From sequence record PQ553088: a stretch of 64,000 nucleotides of DNA; one strand, given 5' to 3'. This document shows positions 14,206 through 14,664 of the stretch, piece after piece; positions within the stretch are counted from its first letter, which is position 1; each line of letters opens with the position of its first letter. The translations under genes were made by a program, and so were the position numbers. This stretch comes from Escherichia phage OES_C-1. Under the pieces are notes generated by a model that had not been told where the DNA came from, searched no databases, and saw only the letters and a program-made list of their open reading frames with translations.

Positions 14206-14664
14206 TTATTTTAAATCATCTGCCCAATCGAGTTTAAGAGGCTCTTTGTATTCACGGTCAAGTACAACCGGAATTTGTACATCACCGCTAAATGATAAGG
14301 GCCCAACATTATAAGACAATGTTATATGCGGTGTGTAATCATCAAAATCGTGTGTAGCACCTAGTGCCCGCGCATACATGTGTCGACAGCGCAGATATTC
14401 AGAATCTAGTACAAGTACAAGAGTCGATCCATCTTGTGTTTTCCATACTTCTAAATGTCCAGAAGAAGCTACTTCAAAACTTCCACTCGATGGAACATAT
14501 GGAACATTTACTCTCGAATAACATATGGTCGAATGAATTTTTTCTCTAGGAACTGGATTAGGAACACGTAAAGAGCGCTGGAGTTCTTCCAGCGCGTCAA
14601 GTGTTAATTCTGAAAACTTAGCTGCTACATAAAGACCCGTTGAAAAGTCTTTAAATTCCATCAT
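14206..14664 (-). CDS. 57B: 2H phosphoesterase family protein (gene 57B; Acb1-like anti-CBASS cyclic-nucleotide phosphodiesterase)
   Basis: 152 aa; two H-x-T/S motifs (HSTICY, HITLSY); position between ipI and 57A as in T4. Confidence 0.7.

Follow-up and report, generated by a model that had tools for sequence, protein, structure and literature searches.

A T4-like segment of Escherichia phage OES_C-1 probably carries both published CBASS inhibitors of T4, with Acb1 and Acb2 proteins unchanged from T4

Introduction

Does the gene in the 57B position of a T4-like phage encode an enzyme that destroys cyclic-nucleotide immune signals, and does the same genome carry a second, independent counter-measure against the defences that use them? 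The question arose from a sequence-only reading of 64,000 nucleotides of Escherichia phage OES_C-1 (record PQ553088), hereafter the window, in which a 152-residue product was seen to contain two H-x-T/S motifs of the kind found in 2H phosphoesterases. That reading took the product to be Acb1, and a small gene in the vs.4 position to encode an Acb2-like sponge.

Both names come from work on CBASS (cyclic-oligonucleotide-based antiphage signalling). Hobbs et al. 2022 identified the product of T4 gene 57B (NP_049750.1) as Acb1, having arrived at 57B by activity-guided fractionation of T4-infected cells for cleavage of 3'3'-cGAMP (PMC9117128). According to the same study, the HxT/HxT active-site tetrad of this 2H phosphoesterase consists of H44, T46, H113 and T115; the enzyme needs no metal and cuts 3' of adenosine, and the T4 double mutant H44A/H113A is catalytically dead. 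Structures of the FBB1 Acb1 revealed a 2H fold with a C-terminal lid formed by residues 145-152, and the scissile phosphate lay positioned over the H44/T46/H113/T115 tetrad (PMC9117128). The authors also deleted acb1 from T4 and tested lysates of the mutant for cleavage of cyclic nucleotides (PMC9117128).

A screen of T4 mutants pointed to Vs.4 as the factor restraining type II CBASS; the protein binds cGAMP, crystallizes as a hexamer with three cGAMP molecules, and belongs to the same family as Acb2, a name taken from Huiting et al. (PMC10449767). For T4-Acb2 the KD for 3'3'-cGAMP is ~84 nM; further cyclic dinucleotides are bound too, but cA3 and cAAG are not (PMC10312549). T4 strains lacking acb1, acb2 or both have all been built, and a further defence, Panoptes (OptSE), senses Acb2 by firing once Acb2 sequesters its decoy nucleotide (PMC12657218). 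The literature thus already credits T4 itself with both counter-measures (PMC10312549, Discussion; PMC12657218).

Here we examined the two loci of the window for protein identity, the placing of the motifs, synteny, overlap between genes and purifying selection; the activities, structures and phenotypes that we cite come from earlier published work on T4 proteins of the same sequence. Our main conclusion, to which we give a probability of about 0.96, is that the window is part of a T4-like (Tequatrovirus) genome that carries both published CBASS inhibitors of T4 as proteins unchanged from T4.

Results

The window and its relation to T4

DNA searches assigned the region to Tequatrovirus: several hundred T4-like records matched it, and those of Yersinia phage vB_YepM_ZN18 and Escherichia phage OES_C-2 came closest (99.8-100% identity). 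Over its first 21 kb the window aligned to the reference genome of T4 (NC_000866) at ~93-97% DNA identity, interrupted by several indels. T4 synteny was kept at both loci: gene 1 (dNMP kinase), 57A, 57B and an internal-protein gene around the first, and vs.3, vs.4, vs.5 and vs.6 around the second. The features discussed below are collected in Table 1.

Table 1. Positions of the two anti-defence genes, their motifs and neighbouring loci, numbered from the first letter of the window
Feature	Position	Strand	Remarks
acb1 (T4 gene 57B), 2H-phosphoesterase cleaving cyclic oligonucleotide immune signals	14206..14664	-	152 aa, ATG-to-stop ORF
First HxT motif of acb1, codons H44-S45-T46	14527..14535	-	cat-tcg-acc; motif HSTICY
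Second HxT motif of acb1, codons H113-I114-T115	14320..14328	-	cat-ata-aca; motif HITLSY
57A (tail-fibre chaperone)	14661..14891	-	Pfam GP57, E = 2.7e-50; directly upstream of acb1
acb2 (T4 gene vs.4), cyclic-dinucleotide sponge	3319..3585	-	88 aa
vs.5	3578-3799	-	73 aa; phrog_1986 end to end, E = 1.2e-42; overlaps acb2 start by 8 nt
Internal virion protein	13896-14141	-	81 aa; phrog_8111, E = 1.5e-52; N-terminus MKTYQEFIAE
Internal head protein	5625-5931 (ORF 5648-5929)	-	~93 aa; phrog_3499, E = 3.8e-46; flanked by denV and lysozyme gene e
ORF in insertion relative to T4	9916-10479	-	phrog_2280, E = 2e-53
ORF in insertion relative to T4	10605-11075	-	phrog_2280, E = 6.6e-59
Extra ORF adjoining tRNA-Arg	11466-11816		116 aa; phrog_3355
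tRNA-Arg (TCT)	11833-11908
segB, GIY-YIG endonuclease	11912-12619
tRNA-Leu (TAA)	12703-12789
tRNA-Gln (TTG)	12790-12863
HNH homing endonuclease	16303-16977	-	224 aa; phrog_655, E = 2.6e-59; weak Pfam HNH matches
tk.1-tk.3 region, downstream of tk	395-960

The 57B product is identical to T4 Acb1

Pairwise alignment settled the identity of the 57B product: 152 of its 152 amino acids are those of T4 57B (NP_049750.1), the protein named Acb1 in PMC9117128, so that the equation made in the sequence-only reading is confirmed. The product also matched the Pfam Acb1 profile (PF23474) end to end (positions 1-144 of 144), with a score of 202.7 bits and E = 2.7e-60 against a curated cut-off of 27 bits. 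A match to PDB 7T26, the FBB1 Acb1, covered query residues 9-149 (E = 4.2e-62) and aligned both HxT motifs. The motifs that had been noted are indeed present in the ORF, with histidines at residues 44 and 113, a spacing of 69 residues. The published tetrad positions H44, T46, H113 and T115 are occupied in the window protein by the same histidine and threonine residues, and with all 152 aa present the protein extends through the C-terminal lid (145-152).

Beyond the protein itself, the window shares with T4 the tetrad, the place of acb1 downstream of 57A, and the ATGA overlap between these two genes. The loci differ at 10 nucleotides of acb1, all synonymous, and in what lies downstream, which is ipI in T4 and a different, 81-aa internal protein in the window. 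The Acb1 of Erwinia phage FBB1 (PDB 7T26/7T27) is a member of this family that shares the 2H fold and conserves both HxT motifs, but it is a homologue and not an identical protein; its first motif is HTT, whereas that of the window is HST.

The vs.4 product is identical to T4 Acb2

The small gene lies between vs.3 and vs.5, as in T4, and its product is identical to T4 Vs.4 over 88 of 88 residues, which bears out the position that synteny had suggested for it. It is equally identical to the PDB chain 7UQ2 ('Vs.4'; 88/88, E = 1.9e-57). The proposal that Vs.4 is an Acb2-like sponge was also borne out: the Pfam hairpin domain PF24729 (Acb2_Tad1_hairpin) was matched over positions 1-58 of 58 with 71.4 bits and E = 7.1e-20 (curated cut-off, 27 bits), and the literature equates Vs.4 with Acb2. 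The T4-Acb2 residues cited in PMC10312549 (Y37, A57, L60, D61, T64 and T68) have the same numbers in the window protein.

A mechanical list of ORFs offered a longer, TTG-initiated form of Vs.4 (3319-3621, 100 aa). We chose the ATG at 3585 instead because this start agrees with T4 as annotated, with chain 7UQ2 and with the residue numbers used in the literature. The sequence GAGGAAG stands just upstream of this ATG.

The window and T4 thus share the Acb2 protein in full, and in both its gene is flanked by vs.3 and vs.5 (7UQ2; Jenson et al. 2023; Huiting et al. 2023; Cao et al., PMC10312549). The two vs.4 loci differ by 11 synonymous nucleotides, and vs.5 of the T4 reference is annotated as shorter (58 aa) and shifted in frame. 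The Acb2 of Pseudomonas phage PaMx33 (PDB 8H2J and 8IXZ, 'p26') is of the same family and shares the Pfam hairpin domain, but its direct match to the window Vs.4 was weak (E ~0.03), and it is ~24% identical to T4 Acb2. It has a second pocket that binds cyclic trinucleotides, which the T4 allele does not bind (PMC10312549); because the T4 allele lacks this capacity, we expect no cyclic-trinucleotide binding of the window Acb2.

Both alignments, which had been proposed as the check on these assignments, thus returned 100% identity with the catalytic histidines retained. The claim that the window holds two independent counter-measures stands in the same form in which the literature makes it for T4, both genes encoding products identical to those of T4. 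As far as sequence can tell, all defining features of the Acb1 and Acb2 families are present. An NCBIfam scan returned no model matching Acb1 or Acb2.

Both proteins are under purifying selection

Gene 1 (Pfam DNMK, E = 8e-107), 57A, 57B and the internal-protein gene all lie on the minus strand in T4 order. The TGA stop codon of 57A overlaps the ATG of acb1 as ATGA, the arrangement seen in T4, and because of this stop/start overlap acb1 is probably co-transcribed with 57A and translationally coupled to it. By analogy with T4, expression of acb1 and acb2 in phage OES_C-1, its timing included, is inferred to mirror that in T4.

The nucleotide differences from T4 are distributed unequally in their effects. 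In acb1, 10 of 459 nucleotides differ, in 9 codons, and in acb2 11 of 267, in 11 codons; every one of these changes is synonymous and none is non-synonymous. The neighbours of acb1, by comparison, have changed: 57A carries two substitutions and a 4-aa deletion, and gene 1 four amino-acid substitutions. Since only synonymous changes separate Acb1 and Acb2 from their T4 counterparts whereas 57A and gene 1 have altered, we take the pattern to reflect strong purifying selection on Acb1 and Acb2 alike. The deletion in 57A shortens its product to 76 aa, compared with 80 aa in T4, and lies near the C-terminus (T4 ...SADEAKDEE; window ...SADEE).

Other readings of the two loci

The motif pattern that first drew attention to 57B does not identify the protein. 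The product contains 5 His and 23 Ser+Thr among its 152 residues, and of 20,000 shuffles of it 16% carried at least two H-x-S/T motifs, while 5% (n=20,000) carried two such motifs 55-95 residues apart, a spacing comparable to that observed. We therefore rejected the motif as stand-alone evidence. The original argument from motif spacing survives in part, in that the motifs are real and occupy catalytic positions, but taken alone the two-motif pattern is not significant and is weak evidence; homology decides the identity of Acb1. That same homology, which is full length to the Acb1 family and extends to a solved structure, refutes the idea that some unrelated small protein carries the motifs by chance. 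A different possibility is that gene 57B encodes not an anti-CBASS enzyme but a LigT-like one (2'-5' RNA ligase or cyclic phosphodiesterase) with RNA ends as its substrates, as in tRNA repair. PHROG 755 is labelled 'RNA ligase', as is T4 57B in RefSeq, acb1 lies near a tRNA cluster, and the Pfam family 2_5_RNA_ligase2 gave a faint match (13 bits, E = 0.11), the sole signal from the 2H superfamily besides Acb1. Against this, 13 bits is far under the 27-bit cut-off and compares with 202.7 bits for Pfam Acb1, and it was the identical T4 protein that fractionation yielded as the 3'3'-cGAMP-cleaving activity, with lysates of a T4 acb1 deletion assayed in the same work (PMC9117128). We rejected membership of LigT / 2'-5' RNA ligase (PF13563), the match being partial and indicative of a relationship only at the level of the superfamily: that branch shares the active-site logic of two HxT/S motifs but has a different substrate. 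In PHROGs and RefSeq, 'RNA ligase' is a legacy name from the 2H/LigT superfamily, and we regard this reading as highly unlikely.

Even with the identities accepted, acb1 and acb2 might be functionally irrelevant passengers, unexpressed or not under selection. A scan for consensus promoters around acb1 found 13 sites, compared with 8.8 +/- 3.4 in shuffled sequence, which is not above chance and lends this view some weight; terminator counts around acb1 were likewise similar to those in shuffled sequence. However, both ORFs are intact, their 9 and 11 synonymous changes stand against no non-synonymous ones while neighbours show amino-acid changes, the start of acb1 overlaps the stop of the conserved chaperone gene 57A so that a transcript is probably shared, and several hundred Tequatrovirus records have kept the acb1/acb2 region. 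That the two genes are mere passengers is, in our judgement, extremely unlikely. It is very unlikely, too, that in this non-T4 Tequatrovirus background, with its exchanged internal-protein sets, smaller tRNA set and an unbroken vs.5 overlapping acb2, the pair would have an additional or altered role, with Acb1 acting on a non-CBASS substrate (for example, 2',3'-cyclic-phosphate RNA ends) or acb2 expression being tuned through its coupling to the intact vs.5, balancing evasion of CBASS against detection by Panoptes.

Discussion

Proposed action of the pair

On the preferred reading, that both products are the T4 inhibitors, the two proteins would oppose CBASS in complementary ways. Acb1, needing no metal, would keep a cyclic oligonucleotide strained above the H44/T46/H113/T115 tetrad; with the signal destroyed, the CBASS effector would stay inactive. 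The Acb2 hexamer would sequester three cyclic dinucleotides without degrading them. With one protein degrading and the other sequestering, and with ligand ranges that overlap only in part, the pair would widen the set of CBASS systems that the phage evades.

The pairing of Acb1 and Acb2 is already known and published T4 biology, and nothing about it is new here. What the window adds is another Tequatrovirus genome in which both proteins are invariant. Its value is one of annotation: the functions of Acb1 and Acb2 have been experimentally established since 2022-2023, yet many Tequatrovirus records label both genes as 'hypothetical protein' or 'RNA ligase'. For prediction of host range and for phage therapy, the phage can be expected to escape many CBASS systems. 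Panoptes (OptSE), on the other hand, should act against it, because the phage carries Acb2, whose sequestration of the decoy nucleotide triggers that defence (PMC12657218).

Other loci of the window that differ from T4

Several further loci of the window depart from T4. IPI, the product of T4 ipI, inhibits the restriction system GmrSD, and the slot adjoining acb1 is a cassette-like hypervariable anti-defence site. In the window it is filled by the 81-aa internal virion protein, which replaces T4 ipI downstream of acb1. A 59-bp stretch (14153-14211) matches the T4 sequence immediately upstream of ipI. Many close relatives have two internal-protein genes at this slot (ip5/ip6); their matches fall into two pieces, spanning 1532 bp compared with 1201 bp in the query.

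Internal-protein genes differ elsewhere as well. A single internal head protein replaces T4 ipII and ipIII (~1.1 kb). Between e.8 and the small-RNA/tRNA region, the window has a 1.2-kb insertion relative to T4 (9907-11122) with two paralogous ORFs. Their N-termini, MKTYAEFLTEA and MKSYTQFLNEA, resemble the leader sequence of internal proteins, and the pair may represent additional packaged internal proteins.

ARAGORN (9000-14000) and Rfam (9000-14300) found three tRNA genes, compared with eight in T4. A stretch at ~12624-12697 aligns to the T4 tRNA-Gly yet was not called as a tRNA. The extra 116-aa ORF beside tRNA-Arg and segB lie in the same region (Table 1).

The HNH homing endonuclease is inserted between genes 3 and 2, where T4 lacks it (~670 bp compared with ~10 bp); ~19 nt at its 5' end also belong to the 3' end of gene 2. 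Next to acb2, vs.5 shares only about its first 17 residues with the 58-aa product of the T4 reference, which then continues in another frame, and it looks as though the T4 reference vs.5 is frameshifted or its annotation is in error. Finally, the tk.1-tk.3 region, in which one stretch is 69% identical to T4 and the rest is unaligned, is another small patch of variable genes.
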